A stretch of DNA of 64,000 nucleotides from Elusimicrobiota bacterium. GTDB taxonomy: Bacteria; Elusimicrobiota; Elusimicrobia; UBA1565; UBA9628. The stretch lies in assembly GCA_027452025.1 (NCBI GenBank), contig DAIDHI010000080.1, positions 58 to 64,057 of the forward strand, read 5' to 3'. Below are positions 5,679 to 56,735 of this stretch, in pieces (position 1 is the stretch's first letter; each line of letters opens with the position of its first letter). The notes under the pieces are model-generated. The model was given only the letters and a program-made list of their open reading frames with translations, was not told the origin of the DNA and searched no databases. Made by a program: the position numbers and the translations under genes.

Positions 5679-6074
5679 ATGCGAAGACTCCTTTTCGCCT
5701 TCTTCGCCTTGTCCGCCCTCGTCTCGGCGCGCCTCTTCGGCGGCCCGATGGACGGCACCGTCTGGGACGTCAAGGTCAAGCCCGACTCCTTTTTCGCGAT
5801 GTCGCATCGCGGCACTCTGATGTTCGCGCGAGGACGCCTCAGCGTAGCCACGGCCGCGTCGCCCGACTTCCAGCCCGGCTACTATACCGCGCAATCGGTC
5901 GACGGCACCACGGCCGACGCGGTCTGGAACGCCTCCCTTAAAGAGCCGGATCAAGGCGTCATGAACTGGCATGGGCTCGTCCGCGGAGATCGCATCGAGG
6001 GCTTCGCGGTCTGGTGGACTAGGTCGGGGAAAGCCCGGCGCTTCAGCTTCACCGGCTCTCGACGCGAAGGCTAG
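5679..6074 (+). CDS. hypothetical secreted protein
   Basis: 131-aa ORF with signal peptide [17 protein letters not shown] and high GC3. No family recognised. Confidence 0.5.
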
Positions 6075-6631
6075 TGCTGCTGGCGTTCTACAAGCCCTAC
6101 GGCGTGGTGTCTCAGTTCACTCCTCTGGCGGGACATCCCACCCTCGCCGGCTTCGGCCTGCCCAAGGGCGTCTACCCCTGCGGCCGCCTCGACCGCGACA
6201 GCGAAGGCCTGCTGCTGCTCACCGACGACGGGGCCCTCCAGCATCGGCTCAGCGACCCGAGATTCGGCCAAGCGCGGACCTACTGGGCCCAGGTGGAGGG
6301 GGCGGCGCAGGAAGCGGCGCTCGCCAGGCTGCGGCGAGGGCCCCGGCTTTCCGATGGCCCGACTAGGCCGTGCGAGGCCCGGAGGCTTTCGGCGGAGCCC
6401 GATCTTGCGCCGCGCGATCCGCCGATCCGCTACAGAAGGACGGTCGCCACTTCGTGGCTCGAGATCACGCTGACCGAAGGCCGCAACCGCCAGGTGCGGC
6501 GTATGACGGCCGCCGTCGGCCTGCCTACCCTGCGCCTGGTACGCGTGCGCCACGGCGGCGCCGGGCTCGAAGGGCTCGCGCCCGGAGAGTGGCGGCCGGT
6601 CCGTCCAGACACTGTCACGCGTTCGCGCTAG
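6074..6631 (+). CDS. RsuA/RluE-family pseudouridine synthase
   Basis: [17 protein letters not shown] catalytic-Asp motif and the ...[10 protein letters not shown] motif are present. The protein is short and lacks an S4 domain, as RluE does. GTG start. Confidence 0.8.
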
Positions 6632-6945: not shown

Positions 6946-7262
6946 GGCGCGCCGGCGAAATTCACCGACTCGCCGACGACGACCTTCGGGATGCGGAACT
7001 GCACGACGGCCCCGGAACACAGGTAGCAGGGCATCAGGGTCGAATACAGCACGGTCCCTTCATAGCGGCCGACGCGTCCGGCCTGGCGCAGGCAGTCGAT
7101 CTCGGCGTGGGCCATGGGGTCTCCCTGCTGGACGCGCCGATTGCGGCCCCGGCCGATGATGCGCCCGTCCTTGACCAGCACCGAGCCGATCGGAATGCCG
7201 CCTTCCTGGAGGCCCTGGCGAGCCTCGTCGAGAGCCGCTCGCAGAAAGACGTCGTGTTCCAT
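6825..7262 (-). CDS. CDA-fold nucleoside/cytosine deaminase (yeast-FCY1-like / TadA-like)
   Basis: HAE (MAHAEIDC) and PCxxC (MPCYLCSGA) zinc motifs. The 145-aa length and the C-terminus resemble the small cytosine deaminase class. Confidence 0.8.
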   Translation of the reverse strand: MEHDVFLRAALDEARQGLQEGGIPIGSVLVKDGRIIGRGRNRRVQQGDPMAHAEIDCLRQAGRVGRYEGTVLYSTLMPCYLCSGAVVQFRIPKVVVGESVNFAGAPHWLRAQGAQIVDLGDEACIGLMRGFIASNPRLWNEDIGV

Positions 7263-7304
7263 GGCGATATGATATGATCTTTGCCGCTATATAAGGAGAG
7301 ATCA

Positions 7305-8012
7305 ATGAGAATGACCGCCGCCGTCGTCGCCCTCTTGCTCGGCTCGCAGGCCTTCGCCGACGCCGCCCCCGCGAAGAAGTCGTCGTCGACGGGGACGTCC
7401 TCGTCGATGAGCGCGGACCAGAAGACATTCTACGCCCTCGGCATGGCGTTGGCCGATAATCTGAAGGTGTTCAGCCTGACGCGCCCGGAAGTCAAGCTCG
7501 TGGAACGAGGCCTGGAAGACGCCACGCTGGGCCGGCCGACCTCGGTGACCCTGCAGGAATACGGTCCAAAGATCCGGGCCTTGGCGGAGCAGCGCATGGC
7601 TGCCCAGGCGAAGAAAGAAAAGGCGCGCGACGCCGCGTTCGCGACCAACGTCCTCAAGGAACCGGGCGCCAAGACGTATCCTTCGGGCCTGATCATGATC
7701 GTGCTCAAGCCCGGCAAGGGGCCCTCGCCCAAGGCGACGGACACCGTCAAGGTGGACTACGAAGGCAAGCTCACCAACGGCAAAGTCTTCGACAGCTCGA
7801 TTGCCCGCGGCCAGCCCGCGGAATTCCCGCTCAACGCCGTCATCCCGTGCTGGACGGAAGCCGTCCAGAAGATGAAGGTCGGAGAGACGGCCCGACTGAT
7901 CTGCCCGTCGAAGATCGCCTACGGCGACGAGGGCCGGCCGCCTCAGATTCCGGGCGGCGCGACGCTGGACTTTAAGGTCACCCTGCTCTCCATCGTCAAC
8001 AAGAAGCCCTGA
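7305..8012 (+). CDS. FKBP-type peptidyl-prolyl cis-trans isomerase (FkpA/Mip-like, periplasmic)
   Basis: Signal peptide, an N-terminal dimerisation-helix region and a C-terminal FKBP domain (VDYEGKLTNGKVFDSS...IPGGATLDFKVTLLSI). AAGGAG lies upstream of ATG 7305. Confidence 0.85.
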   Translation: MRMTAAVVALLLGSQAFADAAPAKKSSSTGTSSSMSADQKTFYALGMALADNLKVFSLTRPEVKLVERGLEDATLGRPTSVTLQEYGPKIRALAEQRMAAQAKKEKARDAAFATNVLKEPGAKTYPSGLIMIVLKPGKGPSPKATDTVKVDYEGKLTNGKVFDSSIARGQPAEFPLNAVIPCWTEAVQKMKVGETARLICPSKIAYGDEGRPPQIPGGATLDFKVTLLSIVNKKP

Positions 8013-8015
8013 CGA

Positions 8016-8381
8016 TCAGCCGCGCCGGCGCCGGTGCTGGCGCAAAAGGCAATCGTCGGATACGACGAGGAGGCCCGCTTTGCGGGCGCGCTCTTCGCCG
8101 GCCGGGTGCGTGATCCCGTCTTGCAGCCAAAGCGCCTTCGCCTTGATCTTGATGGCCTCGTCGATCACGGGACCCACGACCTCGGGGTTGCGAAAGACAT
8201 CGACGACGTCGACGGGAAACGGGATCGCCGACAGGCTCGGATAGCACGTCTGCCCCAGCAATTCCTCGTGCCCGGGATTGACGGGAACCACGCGGTAGCC
8301 CCGCTCCTGCAGGTAGGCGGCCACGTAGTGGCCGGGACGGTCGGGCTTGGGCGAGCAGCCCACGACGGCGATGGTCTTCAT
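8016..8381 (-). CDS. CoA-binding domain protein (YccU-like)
   Basis: MKTIAVVGCSPKPDRPGHYVAAYLQERGYRVVPVNP is the typical CoA_binding_2 N-terminus. ATG at 8381 is preferred over the listed 8606. Confidence 0.8.
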   Translation of the reverse strand: MKTIAVVGCSPKPDRPGHYVAAYLQERGYRVVPVNPGHEELLGQTCYPSLSAIPFPVDVVDVFRNPEVVGPVIDEAIKIKAKALWLQDGITHPAGEERARKAGLLVVSDDCLLRQHRRRRG

Positions 8382-8846: not shown

Positions 8847-11561
8847 CTATGCGCCTTTGCTCACCTTCTCGAGAGTCAGCCAGCGGTTGGTGCCCGCGAA
8901 CTTTTGGTGCATGCGCGTGCGCGGCTCGCCGTGGGGTGCTCCGAGCTCGGCCACCTGCAAGTCGGCCAGCGCCTCCAGGCCCTTCTTCTTGAACTCGCGC
9001 AGCGAGGCCTCGAGAGCCATGCCCACTGTGCGGAAGGCCAGCAGCGTCGAGAATTGCAGGACGTAGCCGAGACCGCCGAGCTCCTCGTTGGCGATGAGCC
9101 GGCCCTCTTGCTTGGCCTTGCCCCAATGCAGCGAGGGGGAGAGATTGAAGCCCAGCATCTGATCCGGGAAATACTTGTGCACGCCTTGGGCGAAGGCCCT
9201 CGGCCCGTCGATGCCGGTGTCGTTGAACTCGGCCCAAATGACGTCCACGCCCAGAGACGCCGCCTCCAGGGCCCGCGCGATCGCGTGGTCGACGCCCGGC
9301 CCGCGCCCCCCCGGCACGGCGCCGTCCACGGCGTCGGTGCGCGCGATCACGACGAGGTCCGTCTCCGTCGCCTGGGCGGCGGCCTTGACGGCGATGAGCT
9401 TCTCGATCCACTTGTGGGTAGGTACGAGCACCTTGTCTCGCTTGCTGCCGTGATGGGCGATGATGTGGCCGCACGTGCGCTCGGCCGGATCCTGGTCCTC
9501 GAGATGCACGCCGGCGGCGCCCGCGCGGATGAGCTCGCGCGCCAGCGTGAATGTCTGCGTCGGCCCGCCGAAGCCGGCCTCGATGTCGGCGAAGATCGGA
9601 GGCGCGGCCAGGACCTCGCCGTCGCGGTCGTAGAAGTGTCGGTCGCGCGTGCCCTCGATGCCGCGCAGGAGCTCCTGCACCAGCGAGACCATGGAATGTG
9701 AAGGATATATCCCGATGTCTGGATACATGTTGTGGGCGACGGCCAGCTGCCAGCCGCTGGCGTAGATCGCCTCGAAGCCGAGCTCGGTCAGCAGCGACGC
9801 CGTCACGGCGTCGTAGGCCCCCGCCGTGTGGAGGTAGGACTCCGCCGGATCGCTCCGCCGCCGGGCGAAGCGCGCCTTGAGCAGCGCCCTCAGCTTCTGC
9901 GCCGGATGCGTTTTTTCAAGCGGCGCATACATCTTCGCGAACTGCGCCGCGGGATAGGTCCACTTCTTGAAACCTTCGCTGGGAACGGCCGCCGTCTCGC
10001 TGATCATATCTTGGCTCCATTGGCTGGCGCGCTCATAGCGTCGCTCCAGCGCCTCTCTTTGTGCGCGCTCGCCGTTCTGGCGCTGCGCGCGCAGATCCTT
10101 GAAAATCTTCTTCAGCTCCTCGTCGAACCAGCCCGCGACGAGCTCGCGCGTGACGCGCTCTCCCTCCGCGGCCGCGACGGCGTGCCTGATGCGCTGCGCG
10201 ACCATCAGCCGGTAAATCCGGTCCGTCGCCAGATCCTCCATGAAGTTGCCGATGAGGTCGCCGTGCCGGTCGTAGCCTTTGATCATCCGAGCGCCGAGCC
10301 CCGAGAGCACGCCGAATCGATATTCGATCATGGTCCGGATCGCGTCCTTGGTCCCGGCGACGGTGATCGCCCCGATCCCGGTCGGCGCGGGAGTCAGATC
10401 GGGCTTGACCTCGGCGCGCGCGGGAAACGAATGGAGCTGGTTGGGGGCGGGGAATTGGGAAATGGCGGCCTCGTGTTGATCGGGATGCCCGGTCCAAGCC
10501 CCGTCGAAGCCGCAATCCGCTTCATTCTTCTTGTCCGCGGCCAGCCGCTCCATGGCTCGTCCGTTGACCGCGGCATCGCCGCGGTCGGGAAAGAGCGCCG
10601 TCATGCCCCCGATCGCCAGCGCCCCTCGCCGATGGCAGATCTCGACGAGCCGGCGGCGAACATTCTGAAAAAAAGGGATGTCGTGCGGAATCGTGTTACG
10701 GTCCGGCAGGATCCAGCCCGGGTCGGCGAGCTTGAACTCGAGGAGGCTGGCCATATAGTCCCAGCGGCCCAAATTGAGGCCGATCGCGTGTCGGCGAGCC
10801 TCGTAGAGGATCTCCTCGATCTGATAAGCTGCGGGCAGCGACTCGATAAGATACATGATTTTCGTCGTTCCCTCCGGCACGCCGATCGCCGCCTCCATCG
10901 CGGCCAGCGCGTCCGAAAACCACCGCGCCTCGGCGGCCGATTCCACTTTCGGGATGTAGAATCCGAGCTTAGCCTGCAGCCCCGGCGAGTGGACCGCCGC
11001 TTTACGCAGGTCCGCCGTCGGGAAAAAGACCGCGACCATGTCGAAGAGCGAGGCCGACACAATCTCTCCCGGGACGGCTCGCGTTTCGTCGAGATGCAGG
11101 CCGCGGGGGCGGTAATACATAGCCTGAGCGCTCGGCTTGACGCGGGCGGTCTTGCCCGTTTGGGGGTCGGCATAGGCGAGCGTGCCGCGAATGGCCAAGA
11201 CGGTGTTTTCTTGGGCCGTCCGCACGTGCTCCCACTCGGGCGAGATGGAGTCCTCTCCATCCGGCATGCATCCCGGATCGTCGGCGTTGCACATGCCGAC
11301 CAGGATCTTCGCGTTGTCGGCCGGACCGGTGATCTGATTGCGCTGGTCCTTGGCCCAGTCCGGCAGCCGGATCTTCCAGGCCCCGCTCGTCGCCTCCGAT
11401 TCCGGGAGGTAGTCGGGCATCCGTCCTGCGCGCGCGGACGCCAGGGCCGCGCGGCGCTGCTGCAACAGGGCCTGGCGCCTAGGCTCGAAGCGCCTGTGGA
11501 GAGGCAGCAGGAACCCGCGCAAGTCATCCGGAACAATCGCGACGCTTTGTGTCGTTTTCAT
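8847..11561 (-). CDS. bifunctional malate synthase (N-terminal, A-type) / isocitrate lyase (C-terminal) fusion
   Basis: aa 1-~520 align by eye to malate synthase A (RNQITGP, FYIPKVESAAEARWF, GLNLGRWDYMAS, GGMTALFP, DGAWTGHP). aa ~560-904 align to isocitrate lyase (ASGWQLA, ADIEAGFGG, VHLEDQ, TCGH catalytic Cys-His, VVIARTDA, GFNLSPS). It is a single uninterrupted 904-codon frame. Confidence 0.9.
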   Translation of the reverse strand: MKTTQSVAIVPDDLRGFLLPLHRRFEPRRQALLQQRRAALASARAGRMPDYLPESEATSGAWKIRLPDWAKDQRNQITGPADNAKILVGMCNADDPGCMPDGEDSISPEWEHVRTAQENTVLAIRGTLAYADPQTGKTARVKPSAQAMYYRPRGLHLDETRAVPGEIVSASLFDMVAVFFPTADLRKAAVHSPGLQAKLGFYIPKVESAAEARWFSDALAAMEAAIGVPEGTTKIMYLIESLPAAYQIEEILYEARRHAIGLNLGRWDYMASLLEFKLADPGWILPDRNTIPHDIPFFQNVRRRLVEICHRRGALAIGGMTALFPDRGDAAVNGRAMERLAADKKNEADCGFDGAWTGHPDQHEAAISQFPAPNQLHSFPARAEVKPDLTPAPTGIGAITVAGTKDAIRTMIEYRFGVLSGLGARMIKGYDRHGDLIGNFMEDLATDRIYRLMVAQRIRHAVAAAEGERVTRELVAGWFDEELKKIFKDLRAQRQNGERAQREALERRYERASQWSQDMISETAAVPSEGFKKWTYPAAQFAKMYAPLEKTHPAQKLRALLKARFARRRSDPAESYLHTAGAYDAVTASLLTELGFEAIYASGWQLAVAHNMYPDIGIYPSHSMVSLVQELLRGIEGTRDRHFYDRDGEVLAAPPIFADIEAGFGGPTQTFTLARELIRAGAAGVHLEDQDPAERTCGHIIAHHGSKRDKVLVPTHKWIEKLIAVKAAAQATETDLVVIARTDAVDGAVPGGRGPGVDHAIARALEAASLGVDVIWAEFNDTGIDGPRAFAQGVHKYFPDQMLGFNLSPSLHWGKAKQEGRLIANEELGGLGYVLQFSTLLAFRTVGMALEASLREFKKKGLEALADLQVAELGAPHGEPRTRMHQKFAGTNRWLTLEKVSKGA

Positions 11562-11637: not shown

Positions 11638-12396
11638 CTAGATGGCGATGCGAAGGAGGTCGCGCGCCAGGCCGACCCGACGCCGACCGCGCACGAGGGC
11701 GCGCAGCTCGGCCTCCGAGCGTTCCGACAGGTGGGTCAGCAGCCCGCGCCGGCACGCGGACGCGCCAAGAGTCGCCAAGGCCAAGGGAGGCGTCAAATGC
11801 CCGGCCGCGGGCGAAAGAGAGGACAGGGTGCACTCGAGAAGGAAGAGATCGGCCTCGGCCGCGAAATCGGCCAATCCCGGATCGTAGCCGGCGTCTCCGG
11901 AATAAACAAAGCTCTTCCTCTTATACGAGAGCCGGTATGCCAGGGCCGGCGTCGGATGCGGGACCGAGCGCGCCGCGACGCGCCAGTCCGCGCCTCGCGC
12001 GTCGCGGCCGGCAGAGAGTTCCTCGACCTCAAGGCGGTAGCCCCGGGGCGACAGCCAGGGGCGATAGGCGCCGCGCAAATCGTGGAGGAATCGCGCGAAA
12101 TCCCGCGGGCCCCAGAGCCGCAGCCGCCGGCTCCTCGGGCGGGCCTCGTAGCGCAGGAAGAAGAGGAGCGCCGCCAAGTCCCCTACGTGGTCGGGGTGGC
12201 GATGCGAGATGAAGACGTCGGTCACGCGCGCCGGGTCCAGGCCCGCGCGCGCCATCTGCCGGACGGCGCCGAACCCTAGGTCGAAGAGCATGATCCGGCC
12301 GTCCAGCACGACGGCGTTGGCCGCGGCGTTGCGTACCGCAGCTTTCGGCCGCCGCGGCGCGAACGCGCTGCCTGATCCCAAGATGACCAATTCCAT
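11638..12396 (-). CDS. MBL-fold metallo-hydrolase (RNase Z/ElaC-like)
   Basis: MELVILGSGSA... and the HRHPDHVGD metal-binding motif. 252 aa. Confidence 0.75.
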   Translation of the reverse strand: MELVILGSGSAFAPRRPKAAVRNAAANAVVLDGRIMLFDLGFGAVRQMARAGLDPARVTDVFISHRHPDHVGDLAALLFFLRYEARPRSRRLRLWGPRDFARFLHDLRGAYRPWLSPRGYRLEVEELSAGRDARGADWRVAARSVPHPTPALAYRLSYKRKSFVYSGDAGYDPGLADFAAEADLFLLECTLSSLSPAAGHLTPPLALATLGASACRRGLLTHLSERSEAELRALVRGRRRVGLARDLLRIAI

Positions 12397-12417
12397 GGGA
12401 CAATGTTAGAATAACAA

Positions 12418-12476
12418 GGTGTCAGACTTTCACTTTTCACTTACCTTTAATAAGTGGAAAGTGAAAGTCTGACACC
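12418..12476. repeat. AT-rich 26-bp-stem palindromic hairpin element (GGTGTCAG...CTGACACC termini)
   Basis: Left arm GGTGTCAGACTTTCACTTTTCACTTA (12418-12443), 7-nt loop CCTTTAA, right arm TAAGTGGAAAGTGAAAGTCTGACACC (12451-12476). 25 Watson-Crick pairs plus one T.G. It lies between a divergent gene pair, 42 nt upstream of the acnA ATG. Confidence 0.85.
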
Positions 12477-12518: not shown

Positions 12519-15269
<2,751 letters not shown>

Positions 15270-36389: not shown

Positions 36390-36426
36390 GCGGCCTCTCC
36401 GCTCGCGCGGAGAGGCCGCTCATTTT
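36390..36426. terminator. GC-rich hairpin between convergent transcripts (likely bidirectional terminator)
   Basis: 13-bp stem GCGGCCTCTCCGC / GCGGAGAGGCCGC with loop TCGC, followed on the + strand by TCATTTTA. It sits between the stop of the 36012-36371 gene and the 3' end of rnpB. Confidence 0.5.
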
Positions 36427-36797
36427 AGGGAGAGCCTGTACCCCGAATTCTGTTCCCCCCTCGCGGAGGGCGAGGATCATTTCTCTGATGCGGCTACCGA
36501 GGAGCCGCCCCGCCTCTCGGCGGGACCGCGCGGGCCGCGCGAGCTCCCACACTGCCTTGCTCCGGACGGGGTTTGCCGTGACGCCGTCCCTCGCGGGACG
36601 GCCGGTGGGCTCTTGCCCCACCTTTTCACCCTTGCACTCCGCACGGTCTGCGGAGTGCGGTTGTTCTCTGTGGCACTTTCCGTCGGCGAAGCGTATGGTC
36701 TTCGCCTCCCCGCCTTTCGACGGGCGTCCTGCCCTGCGGAGTTCGGAAGTTCCTCCCCCCGCGACGCGTCGCGGAAGGCGATCCCCCGGCTCTCCCT
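36427..36797 (-). ncRNA. rnpB: RNase P RNA (bacterial type A-like)
   Basis: The reverse complement contains GGAAAGTGCCACAGAGAACAACCGC, GCAAGGGTGAAAAGGTGGGGCAAGAGCCCACC, GGCAAACCCCGTCCGGAGCAAGG and ACAGAATTCGGGGTACAGG. P1 pairing is AGGGAGAGCC...GGCTCTCCCT. The ends are approximate. Confidence 0.85.
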
Positions 36798-39938: not shown

Positions 39939-41699
39939 ATGTCCCGACGCCGCCGCGCCCCGCTCCTGCTGGCCGCCGCGCTGCTGGGGGCGGGGCCGGC
40001 GTCGGCGAGGACGTCGAGCAGGGCTGCCGCGGTCGAGCAGCTGTGCCCCCGCATCCGCTTCGTAGGCCCGGCGATCGACCTCGACGACGTCGAGAAGCGC
40101 CTGGTCTGCGGAGATCCGAGCCGCCCGGCCTGGAGCCGCATCCCGCTCAACCAGGCCGAGCAGTTCATGCGCGCGTTCCTGCAGAGGCGCGGGCGCAATT
40201 TCCCGACCTTCAAGGCCGTCGACGACACCCTGGAGGTGCGCATCGGGACGCCGACCTACGTGACGAAGATGACGACCACGGGACTGGAGGGCATTTTGGA
40301 CATGAGCAAGCGCCGCCACATCGTCGGCGAGCTCATGACCCCGGCGGAGCTCGACAAGTTCACCAGCGCCGTCAAGTTCGAGCTCCAGAGCCGCGGCTAC
40401 GCCTGCCCCAAGATCAGCGTGACCGGCGACGCCCGCACGGGCGAGGTGCACGCCTCAGTCGATCCCGGGCCGCGCTACACGATGAGCGACATCGCCACGC
40501 CGCCGCCTCCGGGCATCGACCCGGACATCTTCCGCCGCTATTGGGCCTTCGAGCCCAGCCAGCCATTCGACACGCGCCTGCTGTCTTTGACCTCCGACCG
40601 CATCCAGACCGACGCGCTCTTCCTGAGCGCCTATTACGAGGTCGCGTGCACGACCACGGGGCTGCACATCACCCAAAGGGTCGTCGAGGCTCCTCCGCGC
40701 GAGGTGCGCATCGGCGTGGGGGCCGACACCGAAGGCTATCTGCGCGGCCGCGCCGAGTGGAAGCATTCCCGGATAGGCTACCGCGCCAGCTCCATCGACG
40801 TCACGGCCTTCGACTCCTTCCTCGAACAGTCGGTCGACGGCAACATGAAGTACTACCTGCGGCCTTCCGACCGCATCTACCTGATGCCGCGGGTCTTCCT
40901 GCGGCGCGAGAGCTACACTCCCTACGAAGCCGCCCACTCCGAGGCCGCGATCCTGCCCAGCTGGACTTGGGACGGCACCGACCTCCACGTCGAGACGCGC
41001 GGCGGCCCGGGCATCGAATATTTCAACACCTTGCGCGGCGAGGGCCCGATCGACGACAAGTTCCTCAGCTTCGACACTCAGGCCAAGGTGATGTCGCACC
41101 TCTACGAATATTACGAGCGCGACCCGCGCGAAGGCTGGACGGCCTCGTTCCAATCCAAGTCCCGCGTCTCCGGAGCTTATTCCGACCTGACGGCGCACAT
41201 GATGCGCGTCGACGAGGAGGATCTCTGGAACCTCGGGCGCTACAGCCCGCCGCTGGCCGTCCTGGCGATCCGAGGCTTTGCCGGCACCACCTGGCTCTCC
41301 GACCCCTCTCTGGCCTTCACCAAGCTCCCGCCGAGCATGCGCTTCTTCATGGGCGGCGACGCTAATTTCCGCGGAGCCCCGCTCATGGAGCTGCCCAACG
41401 ACGCCGGCGGGTTTTTGACGGCCGTCTATCAAGGCGTCGAGCTGCGCGCGGGCGACCTCCTTCCCTACGGGCTGCAGCCGCTCGTCTTCATGGACGGCGC
41501 GATGGGAGGCGAGAGCGCCTTCCACCTCGACCCCGCCGTCTACTGGGCTCCGGGAGCGGGCCTGCGCTGGGCGCTGCCCTTCGGCTCCATGCGCGCCACG
41601 ATCGCGCGGGGCCTGACCTGGGCGCGAGGCCAGCAGACCCTGCCGACCTTGAATCTGCCTCGCTGGCAGTTCTTCTTCACGTTCGGACAGGAATTCTGA
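39939..41699 (+). CDS. tamA: Omp85/BamA-family outer-membrane protein (TamA-like)
   Basis: Signal peptide, POTRA-like N-terminal repeats, a C-terminal beta-barrel ending ...WQFFFTFGQEF, and a position immediately upstream of a TamB-like gene. Confidence 0.7.
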   Translation: MSRRRRAPLLLAAALLGAGPASARTSSRAAAVEQLCPRIRFVGPAIDLDDVEKRLVCGDPSRPAWSRIPLNQAEQFMRAFLQRRGRNFPTFKAVDDTLEVRIGTPTYVTKMTTTGLEGILDMSKRRHIVGELMTPAELDKFTSAVKFELQSRGYACPKISVTGDARTGEVHASVDPGPRYTMSDIATPPPPGIDPDIFRRYWAFEPSQPFDTRLLSLTSDRIQTDALFLSAYYEVACTTTGLHITQRVVEAPPREVRIGVGADTEGYLRGRAEWKHSRIGYRASSIDVTAFDSFLEQSVDGNMKYYLRPSDRIYLMPRVFLRRESYTPYEAAHSEAAILPSWTWDGTDLHVETRGGPGIEYFNTLRGEGPIDDKFLSFDTQAKVMSHLYEYYERDPREGWTASFQSKSRVSGAYSDLTAHMMRVDEEDLWNLGRYSPPLAVLAIRGFAGTTWLSDPSLAFTKLPPSMRFFMGGDANFRGAPLMELPNDAGGFLTAVYQGVELRAGDLLPYGLQPLVFMDGAMGGESAFHLDPAVYWAPGAGLRWALPFGSMRATIARGLTWARGQQTLPTLNLPRWQFFFTFGQEF

Positions 41700-44074
41700 T
41701 GCGTACCCTGCGGCGCGCCGTCAAACGGCTCCTCCAGGCCCTCGGCCTGCTCCTCACGCTGACGACCGCGCTCCTGACGGCCTTCATCGCCCGTCCCGAA
41801 TGGTTCCTGACCTCGAGTCGCGTCGAGAGGCTGGCGCGCCGGTTCGGCAAGGCCTATCAGCCCTCATGGACGAGCTTCCATTTCGAGATCGTGTCCCGAA
41901 GCTTCCGCGACAAGACCGTCTCGGTCCGCGTGAAAGACCTGCGCTTCGACGATCCCGCCGCCGGCGCTTCCGGACTGGCGTCCACGGCGGCCGTGACCGT
42001 CAGCTTCCGCCTCGGCCTGCGTCCCCTCGTCCGGCTGACCAGGCTGGACTCGGCCGAGCTCGACGCGCGCTGGCTGCGGCTCGACGAGCGCGGGCCGCGC
42101 CCGGCCAAGCCGGCCAGGAAGACGGTGGAGCGCTACGTCTCGCTGCCGAACCTCCTGCCCGGGCCGGCGCGCTCGATGACATTCGGGGTCGTCGACCTGC
42201 GCGCCCGGCGATTCGTGATCCTGCGCTCGAGCGGCTCTCTGTCCGGCTCGGCCTGGGCGCGCTATCCGTGGCGCAGCCGGCCGCAGCTCGACGCCGCCTC
42301 CGACGTGATCTCGCGCTCGGCCGCGGGCGCCTCGCGCTGGCGCGCCCGCGCGGCCGTGACCTCCGACGTGTTCCAGAAAGGCGGCCTGACCTATCTCCAG
42401 GCGCGGGCGGACTTGGCGGGCCCGGGCTCGACGGCCAAGCTGAGCGCGCGGGTGTTCCAATCCGGGCCCCGGCAGACCCGGCTTCGCGCCGTCGCCGGCG
42501 GCCGCATCGGCGGGCACGCTTTCACCGCCGACCTAGCCGGCTCGCAGACGCCCGCGGCCTACGCCCTGCGCGGCTCGCTGGCCGTACTCGCTCCGACGCC
42601 GCGGCTGCGCTCCGTCTCCTTGGACGACTGCCGCCTCGACGTTCCCCTGCGCAAGGGCTCCCTTTCGCCGCGCGCGCTGACGCTCGATTGCCAGCTCGCG
42701 CTGGCGCCCGCGCCGTTCGGCCCGTCGCCCAACGCCGTTCCCAAGACCATCGCGGGGCGCGTCGCCTTCGACGCCGACGTCAAGAGCTACACGCTGGAGG
42801 GCAAGCCCGACGCCTTCGACGCCCGCCTAGACGCTGCGCTTGGGCCGATGCGCGGCTGGTACCGGTTCGACGCGCGCCTCCAGCTCCAGGCCTCCGGACG
42901 GCTCGCCGCGCTGCCCGCGAGCCTCAAAGCCCGGCACCGCTTGAGCGCCCGCCTGCGCGTGGCGCGCTTCCGCGACCTGGTCGAGTTCCTCAAAGGCACG
43001 AAATACGCCATTCCAGCCCCGCTCAACGTCCTGGAAGGCTCGATCGGCGCCTCGTTTTACGGCTCGGGCGACGCGCGCAGCCCCTCCCAGACGTTCGATT
43101 ATCGCGCGGGAACGGACCTCTCGGGCGCCGGCGAGCGCCTGAAGGTCTCCGTCGCCGGCTCGCTGCTCGCCAAGCGGCTCTTCGAGCCCTCGCGCTCCTT
43201 TTTTGACCGCACCGACGTCGACTTGGAGGAGGTGTCCGTCGAGCTGCCCTATCTGCGCCTGGGGCCGCTGCCGAAGGTGTTCGTCGACAGCCGGATCCAG
43301 ACCGGAGCCGCTTCGCGGCGCGCGGTCGACCCCGTGCCCCCCCCGCCCGCCGAGGCCGTGGCGGGCTCCACCGCGTCCGTGGTCGACTACGACGCGCGCG
43401 TGTTCACCTCCTCGCCCGCCGTGGTCCGGTCCAATCTCGCCAAGACGCCGGTCCCGGTCTCTCTGCGCCTGCGCGCCAGGCCGCAAGCCGTGAGCGGCAC
43501 GATCGCGATCGGGCGCTTCGAAGCCGAGCTGTTCCGGCAGCTGGCCGTCATCGACCACGTGATCCTGACCGAGCACCCGGGCGCCTCGGCGCTCGGCCTC
43601 GACGGCCTCGTCACCTATAAGCGTCCGGAAGCGACGATCTACATCCATCTGCTCGGCAGCACCTCCAAGCCGCAGGTCGCCCTGTCCAGCGACCCTCCGA
43701 TGACGCGAGACGAGATCCTGGCCCTGCTGCTCTACGGCCAGCCGCCGGACGCGCTCGACGAAGATCAGCGCAGCAACGTCGGAAACGCCTCCAACGGCAT
43801 GGCCGCGGGAGCCTTCGGCCTGGCCTCGCTCTATCTCTTCGCCTCCACGCCCGTGGAATACGTGGGCTACGATCCGGCGACGCAGACCTACGCCGTGCGG
43901 CTGAAGCTTCCGGGCGGGGTGCACATGCAGCTGGGCTCCTCGGCGCTGCAGGAATCGCGCACGCTCACGCTGCGCAAGCGGCTGGCGCCCCATTGGCAGA
44001 TCGAGACGCAAGCCGCGACCAGCCAGCAAGGCAACGCCATCACCACGTTCCTCGAGTGGTTCGAACGCTACTAG
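41699..44074 (+). CDS. tamB: translocation and assembly module TamB-like protein (DUF490 C-terminus)
   Basis: N-terminal membrane anchor, a long beta-rich body, and a C-terminal ...SDPPMTRDEILALLLYGQP... block typical of DUF490/TamB. The start overlaps the tamA-like stop. Confidence 0.7.
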   Translation: MRTLRRAVKRLLQALGLLLTLTTALLTAFIARPEWFLTSSRVERLARRFGKAYQPSWTSFHFEIVSRSFRDKTVSVRVKDLRFDDPAAGASGLASTAAVTVSFRLGLRPLVRLTRLDSAELDARWLRLDERGPRPAKPARKTVERYVSLPNLLPGPARSMTFGVVDLRARRFVILRSSGSLSGSAWARYPWRSRPQLDAASDVISRSAAGASRWRARAAVTSDVFQKGGLTYLQARADLAGPGSTAKLSARVFQSGPRQTRLRAVAGGRIGGHAFTADLAGSQTPAAYALRGSLAVLAPTPRLRSVSLDDCRLDVPLRKGSLSPRALTLDCQLALAPAPFGPSPNAVPKTIAGRVAFDADVKSYTLEGKPDAFDARLDAALGPMRGWYRFDARLQLQASGRLAALPASLKARHRLSARLRVARFRDLVEFLKGTKYAIPAPLNVLEGSIGASFYGSGDARSPSQTFDYRAGTDLSGAGERLKVSVAGSLLAKRLFEPSRSFFDRTDVDLEEVSVELPYLRLGPLPKVFVDSRIQTGAASRRAVDPVPPPPAEAVAGSTASVVDYDARVFTSSPAVVRSNLAKTPVPVSLRLRARPQAVSGTIAIGRFEAELFRQLAVIDHVILTEHPGASALGLDGLVTYKRPEATIYIHLLGSTSKPQVALSSDPPMTRDEILALLLYGQPPDALDEDQRSNVGNASNGMAAGAFGLASLYLFASTPVEYVGYDPATQTYAVRLKLPGGVHMQLGSSALQESRTLTLRKRLAPHWQIETQAATSQQGNAITTFLEWFERY

Positions 44075-44086
44075 GCGGAGCTTGAT

Positions 44087-44155
44087 GGTGTCAGGCCTTG
44101 AATTGTTTGACTTGTTTGCCGAGCAAACAAGTCAAACAATTCAAGGCCTGACACC
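44087..44155. repeat. AT-rich perfect 33-bp-stem palindromic hairpin element (GGTGTCAG...CTGACACC termini)
   Basis: GGTGTCAGGCCTTGAATTGTTTGACTTGTTTGC (44087-44119), loop CGA, then the exact reverse complement (44123-44155). It fills the 89-nt gap between the convergent tamB-like and DUF2267 genes. There is no U-tract. Confidence 0.9.
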
Positions 44156-44163
44156 AAGCCCAG

Positions 44164-44679
44164 TCAGTAGCCGCCGGGAACGGCGCCGTAGGGACCCGGC
44201 ACGGACGGAGCCGGCCGCTCGGGCGGGATCGCCGGCTCCGCTTCCTCGCGGGAAAGCTCCGACCAGAATTGCCGGATCTCGCGGGGCAAGATGAACCGGA
44301 TCGCCCGTACTTCGCCCGGGGATAAATGCTCCTCGACGACCCGGAACACCGCCCGCGCCGCGAGCGCGCCGTCGAGACCCGGCTGGCCGCGCAGGGCGTC
44401 GCCGATCGCGCGCAAGAACCGGTCCTTGGTGTAGCGCCGGGGCTTGCGCCGCGGCTTCCAGCCGTCGAAAAAGACGCCTCGCACGAGCAGCGGCATCTGG
44501 GACGAGAACTTGGCCGTCTCGTCGACGGGCATGCAGTCGCGCAGCGCATGCAGCACGGCCCTCAGCGCCGAATAGGCGCGGGGCCGGTCCGTCGAGTGGA
44601 TCTCCGACTCCACCCCCTTGATCCAGAGGTTCGTCTTTTGGAGCGACGAATCGAAGACGTCGATGTTCCTCACCGCCAT
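44164..44679 (-). CDS. DUF2267 domain protein
   Basis: ...RPRAYSALRAVLHALRDCMPVDETAKFSSQMPLLVRGVFFDGWKP... matches the DUF2267 pattern. Confidence 0.72.
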   Translation of the reverse strand: MAVRNIDVFDSSLQKTNLWIKGVESEIHSTDRPRAYSALRAVLHALRDCMPVDETAKFSSQMPLLVRGVFFDGWKPRRKPRRYTKDRFLRAIGDALRGQPGLDGALAARAVFRVVEEHLSPGEVRAIRFILPREIRQFWSELSREEAEPAIPPERPAPSVPGPYGAVPGGY

Positions 44680-51676: not shown

Positions 51677-51751
51677 TGGTGGGCAGTATAGGATTCGAAC
51701 CTATGACCCCTGTCGTGTGAGGACAGTGCTCTACCGCTGAGCTAACTGCCC
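51677..51751 (-). tRNA. tRNA-Val (anticodon CAC), CCA-encoded
   Basis: Reverse complement: GGGCAGT TA GCTC AGCGGTA GAGC A CTGTC CTCACAC GACAG GGGTC ATAGG TTCGAAT CCTAT ACTGCCC A CCA. This gives a full cloverleaf with a 7-bp acceptor stem and a TTCGAAT T-loop. Confidence 0.9.
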
Positions 51752-51862: not shown

Positions 51863-52378
51863 ATGAGCGACAGGCTTAAGGCGGCGAAGGCGCGGTTCGT
51901 GTCCACCTGGGGCGAGATGGCGTCCCATTGGGGCATCAACAAGACGATGGCGCGCATCCATGCGCTGCTCATCGCCTCCGACGCCGCGCTCTCGGTCGAC
52001 GAGATCATGGCAACGCTCTCGATCAGCCGCGGTAACGCCAGCATGAACCTGCGGGCGCTGATGGACTGGGGCCTGGTCAGGCGCGTTTCGGTGGGCAGCG
52101 AGCGGCGCGAGTATTTCCAGAGCGAGAAGGACGTCTGGAACATGTGCTGCCGCATCGCGCGCGAGCGCAAGAAGCGGGAGATCGAGCCCGTGATCGGCGC
52201 TCTGGAGGAATGCCTGCGCGAAGCCGGGGAAGGCCAGGACTCGGCGGCCTTCCGGCGCCGGACCAAGGAGCTCTTGGAGCTGGTCAAGACCCTCGATTTC
52301 GTGCTCGGCAAGGTCGCCGCGCAAGAGAAGAACGCCGTCATGCCGCGCGTGCTGACGCTGCTCAAGGCCATGTCATGA
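51863..52378 (+). CDS. GbsR/MarR-like winged-helix transcriptional regulator
   Basis: FVSTWGEMASHWGINKTMARIHALLIASDAALSVDEIMATLSISRGNASMNLRALMDWGLVRRV is the GbsR-type wHTH pattern. Confidence 0.7.
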   Translation: MSDRLKAAKARFVSTWGEMASHWGINKTMARIHALLIASDAALSVDEIMATLSISRGNASMNLRALMDWGLVRRVSVGSERREYFQSEKDVWNMCCRIARERKKREIEPVIGALEECLREAGEGQDSAAFRRRTKELLELVKTLDFVLGKVAAQEKNAVMPRVLTLLKAMS

Positions 52379-53319
52379 CTCCCGCTTCTTTATTAAAGGT
52401 GGAGGACTCGCTCTCCCGCGTTCGCGCGGGCCTGGAGAGCCGCGCCCTGCGCATCGAGGGCCGGGTCGGCCGGGAGCTGGCGGCCTTCGTGGCCCGCCCG
52501 GGAAAGATGCTGCGCTCGCGCTTCTGCCTGCTTTTGGGCGGCGCGCTGGGCGTGCCGCGGGACAAGGCCGAGGCGGCCGCCCGGGCGCTGGAGCTGGTGC
52601 ACAACGCCAGCCTCCTCCATGACGACTGCATCGACGAGGCCACGCTTCGCCGCAGCCGGCCCACGCCCAACGCCCTTTTCAACATCCCGACGGCGCTGCT
52701 CATCGGCGATCTGGCTTTTTCCCAAGGCCTCGAGGAGGCCGTGGACGTTTCGCCGAGCGCGGCCAAGCTCCTGGCCGCGGCGGTGCGCGAGATGTCGGTC
52801 GGGGAGCTTCAGGAGGAGTTCCTCAAGGGCGACGCCGACTTGACCGTCGACGCCTACATCGGCGTCTGCTCGCGCAAGACCGGCGCGCTCTTCGAGTGGG
52901 CCGGGGCGGTGCTCTCGGAGCTGAGCCCCTTTCCCCACGAGCAGGCGGACCCGCCGCGGCTGGCCTGCGCGGCCGGCATCCTCCTTCAGGTCGTCGACGA
53001 CATCCACGACTACACCCTGGGCGAGCGGGTGTCGGGCAAGGACGAGGGCCAGGACGTCAAGAACCGGCGGCTGACGCTGCCCTGCCTCTACGCCCTGGCC
53101 GACGCGCGGGCCCGCGAGGAGTTTCTCAAGCTTTGGCGAGGCGGCGACGCGACGGGAGTGGGACGGTTCCTCGTCGAGGGCGGGTTCGTCGCGAAGGCGC
53201 GCGGGAAGGGGCGGGAGCTGGCCGACTCCATGACGGCGATGGCGCGCGCCCTGCCCTGCCGCGCCGAGGCCTCCCAATTGGCCTTCTTCATCGACCTGCT
53301 GGTCAAGAGGGAATTTTGA
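52375..53319 (+). CDS. polyprenyl diphosphate synthase (trans-isoprenyl, FARM/SARM type)
   Basis: First Asp-rich motif LLHDDCIDE and second motif VVDDIHD. 314 aa. The ATG overlaps the regulator stop (ATGA). Confidence 0.88.
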   Translation: MTPASLLKVEDSLSRVRAGLESRALRIEGRVGRELAAFVARPGKMLRSRFCLLLGGALGVPRDKAEAAARALELVHNASLLHDDCIDEATLRRSRPTPNALFNIPTALLIGDLAFSQGLEEAVDVSPSAAKLLAAAVREMSVGELQEEFLKGDADLTVDAYIGVCSRKTGALFEWAGAVLSELSPFPHEQADPPRLACAAGILLQVVDDIHDYTLGERVSGKDEGQDVKNRRLTLPCLYALADARAREEFLKLWRGGDATGVGRFLVEGGFVAKARGKGRELADSMTAMARALPCRAEASQLAFFIDLLVKREF

Positions 53320-53320
53320 G

Positions 53321-53761
53321 ATGTCTTACGAGGCCCTGGTCAAGAAAGCGTGGGCGAGCGGGACGTTCAAGCTCGACGAGGCCGAGGCCGGAAAGGCCGA
53401 TCCGTCGGCGGCCGTCAGTCGCGAGGCCGTGCGCCGGGAGATGGAACAGATCGCGGAGAGGGAGACCTGGGACGCCGCAAGCTGCTTCTCCGCCCATAAA
53501 GAGGGAATCATGAAACTAGCTCCGTTCGTGAAGTTCCGTGAAGAGAAGTTCGGCGCCGTGCTCTTTGAGACGCGCTCGGAGAAGGTCTATACGCTCAGCC
53601 CGAGCGGCGCCGCCGTCGTGCGGGAAGTGGTCGCCGGGGCCACTTCCAGCGACCTGCCGGCCAGGCTCAAGCAGAAGTTCGAGGACCCCACCGGGAAGAT
53701 GGAGCAGGAAGCGGCAAGCTTCCTGGCCCAGCTCAAGGACAAGGGCCTCGTCGTCGAGTAG
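53321..53761 (+). CDS. PqqD-family peptide chaperone (RRE) with 63-aa N-terminal extension
   Basis: The C-terminal 83 aa (MKLAPFVKFREEKFGAVLFETRSEKVYTLSPSGAAVVREV...FLAQLKDKGLVV) show the PqqD/MftB pattern. The N-terminal 63 aa have high GC3, so they are probably translated. There is an internal alternative start at 53510. Both ATGs are preceded by AAGAGGGAAT. Confidence 0.7.
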   Translation: MSYEALVKKAWASGTFKLDEAEAGKADPSAAVSREAVRREMEQIAERETWDAASCFSAHKEGIMKLAPFVKFREEKFGAVLFETRSEKVYTLSPSGAAVVREVVAGATSSDLPARLKQKFEDPTGKMEQEAASFLAQLKDKGLVVE

Positions 53762-53767
53762 GGCGCC

Positions 53768-54739
53768 GTGACCGCGCAAGCTCCCGAAAGCGCGCCGCAG
53801 ACGGGCACCGAGGATCTCGGCGCCCCGCTCTACGTCGCCTGGCAGATCACCAACGAGTGCAACCTGGCCTGCCTACACTGCATCGAGGAGTCCGGGCCGG
53901 GAAAGGCCTTCAAGGACGAGCTGACCACCGAGGAGGCTTACCGCCTCATCGACCAGCTCGCGCAAGGCGAGGTGCCCTACGTCTCCTTCTCGGGCGGCGA
54001 GCCGATGGTCCGGCCGGACTTCTTCGGCATGGTCGAGAGAATCACTCGGGGCGGCGTCGGGCTCAAGATCGAGACCAACGGCCATTACCTAACCGCTGAC
54101 AACTGCCGCCGCCTCAAGGACCTGGGCGTCAAGGCCGTCCAGGTCTCCCTCGACGGCGCCAGCCCCGCCTCGTTCAACAAGATGCGGGTCCACGGCCGCT
54201 TCGAGTCGGCGCTGGAAGGCATCGGCCGGCTGCGCGAGGCGGGCGTGCCGATCGAAATCAACTTCGTGCCGGCGAAGTTTAATATCCGCGAGATCGGCGC
54301 CGCCGTCGACTTGGCCTACCGGCTCGGGGCGTATTCGTTCTATACCGGCAAGCTGATGTATACCGGCAACGCCGTGCGCACCTGGGGCATCACCGCCCCC
54401 GACGAGGCGGAGTATCCCGCCTACTTCGCCGCGCTCAAGGAGAAGGCCAAGGAGTACGAAGGCCGCATGCGCGTCTACTACCACGAGATGGGGCTGCTCG
54501 AGGAGCTGCGCTACCGCCTGAAAAACCCCGCCGCCCTCTTCATCGTCCTGCCCAACGGCAAGGTCAAGCTCATCAACGCCCTGCCCTTTATCTGCGGCGA
54601 CCTGCGCCGCCAGAGCCTGGGCCAGGTCTGGCAGAGCTTCCAGCTCGCCTGGAAAAGCCCGCGGGTCAGCGCCTTCATCGACGAGCTCGCCGCCGACCCC
54701 TCGATCCTGTCTCGTCTGCACCGCTGGGAGGAGGTCTAG
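53768..54739 (+). CDS. radical SAM enzyme, PqqE/AhbD-like core, SPASM cysteines absent (paralog 1)
   Basis: YVAWQITNECNLACLHC (Cx3Cx2C), SFSGGEP, KIETNG, VQVSLDG. The C-terminal region ...VLPNGKVKLINALPFICGDL keeps only one Cys. Confidence 0.85.
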   Translation: MTAQAPESAPQTGTEDLGAPLYVAWQITNECNLACLHCIEESGPGKAFKDELTTEEAYRLIDQLAQGEVPYVSFSGGEPMVRPDFFGMVERITRGGVGLKIETNGHYLTADNCRRLKDLGVKAVQVSLDGASPASFNKMRVHGRFESALEGIGRLREAGVPIEINFVPAKFNIREIGAAVDLAYRLGAYSFYTGKLMYTGNAVRTWGITAPDEAEYPAYFAALKEKAKEYEGRMRVYYHEMGLLEELRYRLKNPAALFIVLPNGKVKLINALPFICGDLRRQSLGQVWQSFQLAWKSPRVSAFIDELAADPSILSRLHRWEEV

Positions 54740-54745
54740 GCGGAC

Positions 54746-56592: not shown

Positions 56593-56612
56593 CCGGCAGA
56601 CAGGAGTCAAGC

Positions 56613-56735
56613 ATGAACGACCAGAAGAAGACCGTGACCGTCGTGAAGGCCGAGCCGAAGCTCGTTTGGCAGACCCCCTCCCTGGAGGAGGTCTCCGATC
56701 GGGTGATGGCGCAGCCTTACATCCGGTTCACGTGA
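56613..56735 (+). CDS. 40-aa candidate precursor peptide (PqqA-like): MNDQKKTVTVVKAEPKLVWQTPSLEEVSDRVMAQPYIRFT
   Basis: AGGAG SD lies 7 nt upstream of ATG 56613. 37 of 40 codons end in G/C by hand count. The TGA stop overlaps the GTG start of the next radical SAM gene (GTGA). It is visible only as the tail of the listed ORF 56544-56735. Confidence 0.6.
   Translation: MNDQKKTVTVVKAEPKLVWQTPSLEEVSDRVMAQPYIRFT

Follow-up and report, generated by a model that had tools for sequence, protein, structure and literature searches.

Results

A long hairpin lies between the divergent MBL-fold hydrolase and acnA genes

The window considered here, by which we mean the whole 64-kb stretch of DNA that was analysed, carries a gene for an MBL-fold hydrolase (RNase Z/BN-like) on the minus strand (11638–12396) and, divergent from it on the plus strand, acnA, the gene for aconitase A (12519–15269). 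Judged by homologues of its MBL-fold protein, the contig belongs to an uncultivated Elusimicrobiota MAG. The spacer between these genes contains hairpin element 1 (12418–12476, no strand assigned), which is 59 nt long and consists of a 26-bp stem and a 7-nt loop. Its sequence reads GGTGTCAGACTTTCACTTTTCACTTA-CCTTTAA-TAAGTGGAAAGTGAAAGTCTGACACC, that is, a 26-nt arm, the 7-nt loop and a second 26-nt arm; the arms are 96% complementary, and the lone mismatch is a T.G on the plus strand (T.G/A.C). The GC content of the hairpin is 0.39, as against 0.684 for the 64-kb window. It lies 21 nt from the start of the MBL-fold gene (CAT, 12394–12396) and 42 nt from the acnA ATG (12519). Folded as RNA, the element has an energy of −42.4 kcal/mol (z = −10.1), a value equalled by none of 200 shuffles, and folded as DNA it has an energy of −26.5 kcal/mol (z = −9.9). 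The left foot of the element (12418–12429, plus strand) is GGTGTCAGACTT, where the family consensus is GGTGTCAGRCYT, and the right foot (12465–12476, plus strand), AAGTCTGACACC, is the reverse complement of the left. The arms also contain direct repeats with a period of 7 (P = 0.025 against shuffles). A first-pass annotation of this DNA had described a 59-nt element with one T.G pair in a 26-bp stem, a foreign composition, the same two distances to the flanking genes and short direct repeats in the arms. All of this was borne out, and the repeats also prove to be a trait of the family described below.

A second hairpin, element 2 (44086–44156, no strand assigned), consists of two 34-nt arms, whose 100% complementarity gives a perfect 34-bp stem, and a 3-nt loop; its foot is GGTGTCAGGCCT/AGGCCTGACACC. 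Its folding is correspondingly stable, both as RNA (−63 kcal/mol, z = −14) and as DNA (z = −15.5), and a 9-nt tandem repeat (TTGTTTGAC TTGTTTGC) is present in each arm, with a period-9 score that none of 200 shuffles reached. Element 2 sits between the stop codons of two convergent genes, a TamB-like gene on the plus strand (41699–44074), which ends 11 nt before it, and a DUF2267 gene on the minus strand (44164–44679), whose stop codon lies 7 nt past it. No T-run follows the full stem, and a terminator scan matched only T-rich stretches within the arm. An empty-site comparison was uninformative for this hairpin, as the relatives with a 3–12-nt convergent spacer after DUF2267 have a different neighbouring gene. 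We rejected the possibility that the hairpins are intrinsic (Rho-independent) terminators, hairpin 1 being located in a divergent promoter region and hairpin 2 having no T-run after the full stem. For hairpin 1, a simple terminator had been discounted at first pass, correctly so given its position, and the scan likewise gave no terminator-like site in this region.

Both hairpins start with GGTGTCAGRCYT and finish with ARGYCTGACACC. A common terminus of 8 bp had been pointed out in the first-pass annotation; the shared terminus exceeds this length, reading GGTGTCAG-R-C-Y-T, and GGTGTCAG occurs four times in the 64-kb window, each time as a terminus of one of the two hairpins. No other inverted repeat in the window is both long and near-perfect, the next-best being GC-rich chance pairs with 72–85% complementarity, and a search of the window for further degenerate copies of the foot returned none beyond chance.

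Hairpins with the same foot occur in many genomes

The termini common to the two hairpins, which the first-pass annotation had allowed might be shared by coincidence, are the hallmark of a family that numbers hundreds of copies across many genomes. Contigs of a one-genome-per-species collection were searched with the 19-base-equivalent pattern GGTGTCAGRC-N26-50-GYCTGACACC, which matched at least 119 loci. Among the matches listed, six loci came from Elusimicrobia MAGs (L138, L153, L159, L209, L232 and L235), each of them a long hairpin with the family foot and an interior different from the others; similar long hairpins were found in Acidobacteriota, Geobacter, Actinobacteria and various GC-rich MAGs. 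Metagenomes and viral contigs were searched with the 22-base-equivalent pattern GGTGTCAGRCYT-N21-51-ARGYCTGACACC. A looser 8+8-base pattern had given almost exclusively chance matches on viral contigs, and stricter patterns were adopted. In metagenomes the 22-base-equivalent pattern, for which we estimate only a few chance matches, was found at 120 loci or more, and essentially all of the 125 matches listed were hairpins. The same pattern had no match in 2.9 million viral contigs, and a blastn search with a Bacillaceae 50-nt element found no match among plasmids. The elements are chromosomal, not viral. Altogether, the pattern scans yielded at least about 240 distinct copies of the family, with hosts that include Elusimicrobia, Acidobacteriota, Geobacter, Actinobacteria, Bacillaceae, Bordetella/Achromobacter, Massilia and others.

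By their interiors the elements divide into many subfamilies, and each of these has multiple copies in a single metagenome. In metagenome Ga0255338, GTCGTTCTTTGCATAAC (GGTGTCAGGCCTGTCGTTCTTTGCATAAC...) is present about 12 times, and a 64-nt element occurs in about 30 near-identical copies in peat/soil samples. The interior of hairpin 1 falls into a ‘CTTTCAC..TTTCAC’ subfamily, whose other members occupy non-orthologous loci (L159, L281, L283, L292, L350 and L353). Additionally, we found related architectures built on the 13-mer GGTGTC(A/T)G(A/G)CACC, which is a palindrome by itself. In Bacillaceae this architecture takes the form of the 50-nt element, in Massilia and Pseudoduganella it is seen as 70-nt elements with a local stem capped by the 13-mer, and in Bordetella, Achromobacter and Actinobacteria the 13-mer occurs as singlets, doublets and tandem arrays. 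Literature searches with the foot and the 13-mers returned primer coincidences only, with coverage that was incomplete and an earlier description possible, and those on palindromic repeats in Elusimicrobia returned nothing relevant.

Covariation of the arms points to a constraint on pairing

Elements of the family follow a common plan, with a conserved foot, a variable and A+T-rich self-complementary interior and a short loop. The foot, 5′-GG(T/G)GTCAGRCYT...ARGYCTGAC(A/C)CC-3′, is conserved family-wide and across phyla. Elements are 46–75 nt long with a median ungapped stem of 25 bp, perfect stems of at least 20 bp are present in 39 of 111 distinct copies, and the GC content of the interior is 0.2–0.5 even in hosts of 65–73% GC. 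Tandem repeats of 7–9 nt reached P ≤ 0.05 against shuffles in 23 of 80 non-redundant arms, both window copies included.

Covariation was assessed across the outer 24 nt of each arm in 99 distinct elements, with column shuffles and a slid partner as controls. In these 99 elements 93.9% of cells were paired, compared to 69.6% after shuffling and 27–40% with the partner slid, and the covariation score was 0.589 compared to 0.139 for shuffled columns, with none of 500 shuffles scoring as high. At positions 13–24, which lie beyond the bases fixed by the search pattern, each of the four Watson-Crick pair types is common. Compensatory arm variants occur within one subfamily (GGCCTGTCG/CGACAGGCC, GGCTTGTCG/CGACAAGCC and GGCCTCCCG/CGGGAGGCC). 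Position 3 of the foot co-varies too (GGTGTC/GACACC versus GGGGTC/GACCCC), and copies with GGGGTCAG...CTGACCCC have interiors identical to those of GGTGTCAG copies. Judged from these alignments, it is the pairing that is selected or copied, and not the sequence of the interior. The mismatches comprise 29 G.T, 33 A.C and 54 transversion mismatches, and elements with two transition mismatches divide into six mixed and five same-type. Since there is no strand-specific G.U bias in this small sample, the pairing constraint looks like one on DNA complementarity, not RNA.

At gathering thresholds, neither hairpin, nor the elements at 18 related loci, matched any Rfam family. Permissive matches were to eukaryotic miRNA-precursor models and were sub-threshold (the best, mir-1256, scored 44.9 bits against a gathering threshold of 70); these were rejected as generic hairpins.

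Orthologous sites keep the foot and differ in the interior

Copies occupy divergent, co-directional and convergent intergenic spacers, beside ordinary and unrelated genes. The flanks of more than 150 copies showed neither a target-site duplication nor a common target, and in several copies (L138, L173, L167, L123 and L332) the palindrome extends past the foot. The outward CTGACA of the foot was considered as a −35 for flanking genes and rejected, as its spacing to −10-like hexamers, inspected by hand in the window and at L153, L159 and L235, was inconsistent.

Two sets of orthologous sites bear on the turnover of the elements. One is a convergent GNAT-gene spacer with well-aligned flanks (L275, L310 and L327), and the other comprises L265 (= L364) and L301. 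Within each set the foot is identical and the interiors are unalignable, and each interior is of a type that is multi-copy in that genome’s own metagenome. Partial tandem duplications of the foot and its flank are present at L327, L295, L355 and L359. These turnover data fit either repeated replacement and homogenisation or long residence with a constraint on the foot and pairing only. The orthologous sets would fit long residence under functional constraint, or replacement in situ, at least as well as they would fit copy-and-paste.

Hairpin 1 lies at the predicted start of acnA transcription

A promoter scan of the region found a single sigma-70-like site, ATGACC-18 nt-TAGAAT, where 0.1 were expected. 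This predicted acnA promoter (12383–12412, plus strand) consists of ATGACC, an 18-nt spacer and a TG-extended TAGAAT, with the −10 at 12407–12412. The predicted acnA transcription start, at about 12418–12420, coincides with the first bases of element 1, with which the acnA leader would now start. Because the conserved extended −10 ends 5 nt upstream, element 1 is probably transcribed as the extreme 5′ end of the acnA mRNA. The mRNA would then begin with a 26-bp 5′-terminal stem-loop located 42 nt before the start codon, leaving the Shine-Dalgarno sequence free. On the opposite strand, the near-palindromic TGTTAGAATAACA (12404–12416, minus strand) contains, read directly from the sequence, TGTTATTCT (12416–12408). 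This could be a TG-extended −10 of the MBL-fold gene, with the ATG 11 nt downstream; if so, element 1 would occupy or replace the −35/upstream region of the MBL promoter.

The divergent MBL/acnA pair is kept in three related lineages, with spacers of 57 nt (L240), 51 nt (L242-244) and 22 nt (L373), none of which contains a hairpin. Subtracting the 59-nt element from the window’s spacer leaves 63 nt. L240 also keeps the adjoining malate synthase-isocitrate lyase fusion gene, and its acnA leader is homologous to the part of the window’s acnA leader that lies outside element 1. These empty-site relatives are distant, their MBL proteins being 63–65% identical. In the window, L240, L242 and L373 alike, TAGAAT is found within a few bases of the MBL start, and it is TG-extended in the window and in L242. 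In L373 the −10 is 6 nt ahead of the acnA ATG, which implies a leaderless acnA transcript. That hairpin-less relatives carry the same TAGAAT argues that hairpin 1 is an insertion, placed 5 nt after the conserved −10 and at the predicted acnA start. Three losses, in which the hairpin would have disappeared from each of the related lineages rather than been gained here, are formally possible.

Search for a mobilising enzyme

ORF searches found no transposase or recombinase genes in the 64-kb window, and neither ORF clustering nor Pfam scans of 150 neighbouring ORFs revealed a recurrent transposase or recombinase beside the elements. A RAYT Y1-transposase gene in particular was found neither in the window nor among the 150 ORFs adjoining elements, so that the linked Y1 transposase suggested as a check at first pass did not materialise, either here or beside about 150 other copies. 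The fetched loci (~1.5 Mb) likewise contained no gene bounded by two feet that could represent a parent element, and the genes located between paired copies are ordinary genes. The foot bears no GTAG or CGTC tag; what is conserved instead is GG(T/G)GTCAGRC, which is part of the stem.

A single lead to an enzyme emerged. At L260, a RAYT gene (7256–8137) is flanked by inverted TTGGGGTCGGACCAAGC, a repeat that agrees with the foot variant GGGGTCAGACC in 10 of 11 positions. Elements at L277 and L359 are each directly adjoined by a truncated RAYT-like gene. We judged this adjacency to be coincidental, since intact relatives of the L277 type (L371) have an inverted repeat of their own, GGGA(G/C)GTCTATAAGTTCA, and lack GGTGTCAG hairpins.

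Discussion

We think it likely that both hairpins are copies of a widespread, REPIN-like family of non-autonomous palindromic DNA repeats. A REP/MITE-like palindromic element was among the possibilities raised at first pass, and it gained support from the hundreds of copies in many genomes and from the lack of hairpin 1 in the orthologous spacer of three related lineages. REPINs have conserved ends, between which lies a spacer that has only to be able to fold into a hairpin, and compensatory changes are common in them (Bertels & Rainey 2011, PMC3116915). RAYT/TnpA_REP, for its part, processes REPs in the form of folded single strands, reading a conserved tag at the foot together with structure (Corneloup et al. 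2021, PMC8266576). As the anatomy of our elements matches that of REPINs, and as REPs are processed in this form, we propose that a trans-acting enzyme reads the foot. The elements would spread, or be renewed, at the DNA level, probably as folded single-stranded DNA in which the interior needs only to pair. A HUH/Y1 enzyme of the RAYT type would be the obvious candidate for the mobiliser, and it is put forward as a candidate only.

If both hairpins arrived in this way, their effects at acnA and at the convergent site would be by-products of insertion. The 5′-terminal stem-loop would be expected to stabilise the acnA mRNA against 5′-end-dependent decay, and element 1 would also displace the upstream region of the divergent MBL promoter. 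In its convergent spacer, which it fills, element 2 could serve as a bidirectional 3′ stem-loop.

Several features of the family could also be expected if the elements were structures selected by the host and not mobile, with the foot binding a conserved host protein (nucleoid, gyrase or other), or with the hairpins acting as terminators, insulators or mRNA-end protectors at fixed sites while the interior drifts. The foot is identical across phyla and is kept alongside different interiors at orthologous sites (L275/L310/L327 and L265/L301), many copies in Bacillaceae, Omnitrophota and elsewhere have an A-run and a T-run at their flanks in the manner of bidirectional terminators, and viral contigs yielded 0 matches. 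However, copies also occur in divergent promoter regions, where they have no terminator role, neither window copy has a U-tract, and three orthologous spacers lack hairpin 1. The elements are, moreover, A+T-rich and foreign within genomes of 68–70% GC, and interiors that are common to loci within a genome but differ between genomes at one locus indicate copying or homogenisation rather than independent drift. We consider host-selected structures unlikely on this evidence, though the conserved orthologous sites keep them in contention. Conserved termini, a variable inner arm and a short, intergenic, multi-copy nature with subfamilies are what one would expect of MITEs derived from DDE-type ISs, in which two terminal inverted repeats abut and IS relatives share only the outermost 10–12 bp. 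That origin is very unlikely in our view, given that none of the inspected copies has a target-site duplication, that the palindrome continues past the foot in the five copies named above (L138, L173, L167, L123 and L332), and that the neighbours include neither a full-length partner with these ends nor a DDE transposase. Independent decay of the terminal repeats would also not give the compensatory double changes seen in the arms.

Two further explanations concern hairpin 1 and its setting. The first-pass annotation had suggested a 5′-UTR structure controlling acnA, and the part of this suggestion that stands is that the hairpin, located between the predicted −10 and the start codon, is probably within the transcript. 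Aconitases moonlight as RNA-binding proteins, and on these grounds one could imagine the acnA leader to contain a dedicated cis-regulatory RNA, working through IRE-like autoregulation or as some other switch. The control part of the suggestion fares poorly, as the element is generic: the same type occurs beside unrelated genes, and acnA of three related lineages lacks the hairpin, with L373 acnA even predicted to be leaderless. The loop, CCUUUAA on an unbroken 26-bp stem, is not IRE-like, with no CAGUG hexaloop and no C-bulge; Rfam offered nothing but sub-threshold, generic matches, and the mismatches carry no strand-specific G.U signal. A dedicated riboregulator thus appears highly improbable. 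The inverted repeat within a divergent promoter region had also prompted the idea of a protein-binding operator, here one for a transcription factor of the MBL and acnA promoters. We find this scarcely credible, because the half-sites lie 30–55 bp apart at a variable distance and enclose a self-complementary spacer, an architecture that no dimeric operator is known to require, and because an identical foot is present in convergent and co-directional spacers across phyla.

A broader version of the mobile-element account is conceivable, although we regard it as doubtful. All of these elements might belong to one ancient, cross-phylum system of single-strand DNA elements with the GG(T/G)GTCAGRC foot, served by one foot-specific class of enzyme that also swaps interiors in situ. 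Cassette-like exchange at the conserved foot would then both insert copies and renew or swap the interiors of resident ones, and the site in its minimal form would be the 13-mer GGTGTC(A/T)GACACC found in Bordetella, Achromobacter and Actinobacteria. Exchange of interiors in situ would account for the same foot being found with genome-own interiors at orthologous sites, as well as for interiors that are homogenised within a genome and for the partial duplications of foot and flank.

Returning to the REPIN-like family that we favour, a foot that is identical from Elusimicrobia to Bacillaceae, attached to sequence that is otherwise free so long as it pairs, would amount to a natural experiment on what a hairpin-recognising enzyme reads. 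The family would extend REPIN-like biology to uncultivated phyla. Its members are easily mistaken for regulators, terminators or miRNA-like hairpins, and a simple pattern now recognises them. Hairpin 1, at the predicted acnA +1 and beside a cluster of glyoxylate-shunt genes, offers a testable case of a selfish insertion, one that may alter both mRNA stability and the architecture of a divergent promoter.

Comparison with known systems

REP/REPIN-type repeats are best known from Proteobacteria, each lineage with a sequence of its own. Like them, our elements are short, extragenic palindromic repeats present in many copies (two in the 64-kb window and at least about 240 in the fetched loci), with no target duplication, populations that are specific to a genome and a location that is chromosomal rather than phage- or plasmid-borne. 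As in REPINs, two conserved inverted ends enclose a spacer that keeps its hairpin potential by compensatory changes. In contrast, whereas a REP is itself a stem-loop of 20–40 nt, the end of our elements is a 10–13-nt foot that forms the base of one long stem, and it lacks the GTAG/CGTC tag. The foot is also common to many phyla, unlike the lineage-specific sequences of REPs. The interior has a strong A+T bias, and no flanked RAYT gene was found in the window or among the 150 ORFs beside elements.

In bacterial MITEs such as Correia/NEMIS, the interior is conserved, target-site duplications are present, and a parent IS can be recognised. Our elements resemble them in being small, non-autonomous, intergenic inverted repeats, and in that such repeats can be co-transcribed and so alter the ends or stability of mRNAs. 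They differ in having no conserved interior, target duplication or parent IS, and in that their arms co-vary. Given these failed MITE tests, the lack of a GTAG/CGTC tag, and a search of the window and of 150 neighbouring ORFs that brought up no flanked RAYT, we place the elements in neither the REP nor the MITE family.

The attC sites of integrons have R and L boxes (RYYYAAC/GTTRRRY), extrahelical bases and imperfect stems, and occur in arrays next to intI. Like these recombination substrates, our elements would act as a folded single-strand structure in which the bases of the foot are conserved and the rest is highly variable, and attC sites are cited as an analogy in PMC8266576. Our elements show no R or L boxes, extrahelical bases, imperfect stems or intI-linked arrays, unlike attC.

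Stem-loops at the 5′ terminus stabilise bacterial mRNAs, as in the ompA leader. The predicted acnA transcript would likewise start with a stable hairpin, preceded by 0–2 unpaired 5′ nucleotides. Unlike in ompA-type leaders, the 5′ stem-loop of acnA may be a consequence of where this particular copy landed, rather than a defining feature of the element.

Predicted divergent promoters and the neighbourhood of acnA

Between the gene for an MBL-fold hydrolase (11638-12396, minus strand) and acnA (12519-15269, plus strand), the near-palindrome TGTTAGAATAACA occupies positions 12404-12416, and a TG-extended -10 can be read on both of its strands (TGTTAGAAT on the plus strand, TGTTATTCT on the minus strand). 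This double reading suggests that acnA and the MBL gene are served by overlapping, face-to-face promoters, and an MBL transcript from the promoter predicted here would be almost leaderless. In a relative of this locus from an Elusimicrobia MAG (L373 110-135), the MBL/acnA spacer is only 22 nt long, and TAGAAT, the predicted acnA -10, stands 6 nt ahead of the acnA ATG, which implies that the acnA mRNA of this relative would be leaderless.

Adjoining the MBL gene and acnA is a single 904-aa ORF (8847-11561, minus strand) that fuses malate synthase to isocitrate lyase, so that the domains for both activities, and thus the entire glyoxylate shunt, lie in one protein. The same fusion occurs in the same neighbourhood in a second relative, L240. 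Farther along the window, at 52144-55633, genes for a polyprenyl synthetase, a PqqD-like protein, a radical-SAM enzyme and a UbiA prenyltransferase form a co-directional cluster, and an additional radical-SAM gene is located at 56540-57700; a pathway for quinone or another prenylated cofactor may be encoded here. The window yielded matches to just two Rfam families, a class A RNase P RNA (36423-36797, minus strand, 182 bits) and one tRNA (51680-51751, minus strand).

Foot variants and duplications at element ends

Five hairpins from other loci carry the foot variant (T)GGGGTCAGRC...GYCTGACCCC(A): L249 7812-7890, L290 930-998, L352 730-804, L311 1892-1954 and L313 1979-2024. Some of these share their interior with GGTGTCAG-foot copies on the same contig, so position 3 of the foot itself can switch from T:A to G:C as long as the change is compensated. 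Element ends with 12-25 nt of flank are also partially duplicated in tandem, for example ...CTGACACC-ATTCTAATCCGTTAGGCGGAA-TGACACC-ATTCTAATCCGTTAGGCGGAA; such duplications, at L327 (around 6040-6093), L295 5060-5130, L355 1560-1720 and L359 2420-2530, may be footprints of slippage or of the mechanism by which the elements insert. A second perfect inverted repeat in an Elusimicrobia MAG (L159 2929-2991; 21 bp, TAATTCGGGACACAATACCTA ... TAGGTATTGTGTCCCGAATTA, with a 21-nt spacer) lacks the family foot, yet contains GACAC/GTGTC.

RAYT-like transposase genes

In L260 (7150-8200), a gene for a 293-aa Y1 (RAYT/IS200-like) transposase lies between inverted copies of TTGGGGTCGGACCAAGC(TATCC), with another copy at 11137; 10 of 11 positions agree between this repeat and the foot variant GGGGTCAGACC. 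A second RAYT-like family, whose C terminus bears a DnaA_C-type HTH, was met at L371 1974-2969, L372 and L277 563-952; many of its database entries are 5′-truncated gene calls or fragments. The L371 ORF is in fact uninterrupted at 332 aa, and inverted GGGA(G/C)GTCTATAAGTTCA lies on either side of it.

Similar repeats in other arrangements

The 13-mer GGTGTC(A/T)GACACC does not build single long hairpins in Vicinamibacterales, Thermoleophilia, Achromobacter and Bordetella (L158 1487-1570, L136 7835-7999, L146 7170-7660 and L165 2351-2625); there it recurs in tandem at regular intervals, the periods being 21, 56, about 176 and 106 nt. On phage-like contigs, the heptamer GGTGTCA(G) occurs in runs, or TGACACC repeats are dispersed, arranged as inverted blocks: L077 (1-57 and 7831-7902, the former at position 1 of a fetched stretch that begins within the contig), L032 at 4100, L005/L052 and L058/L004/L100. 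The repeats on these contigs resemble iterons or terminal repeats and probably have no connection with the hairpin family.
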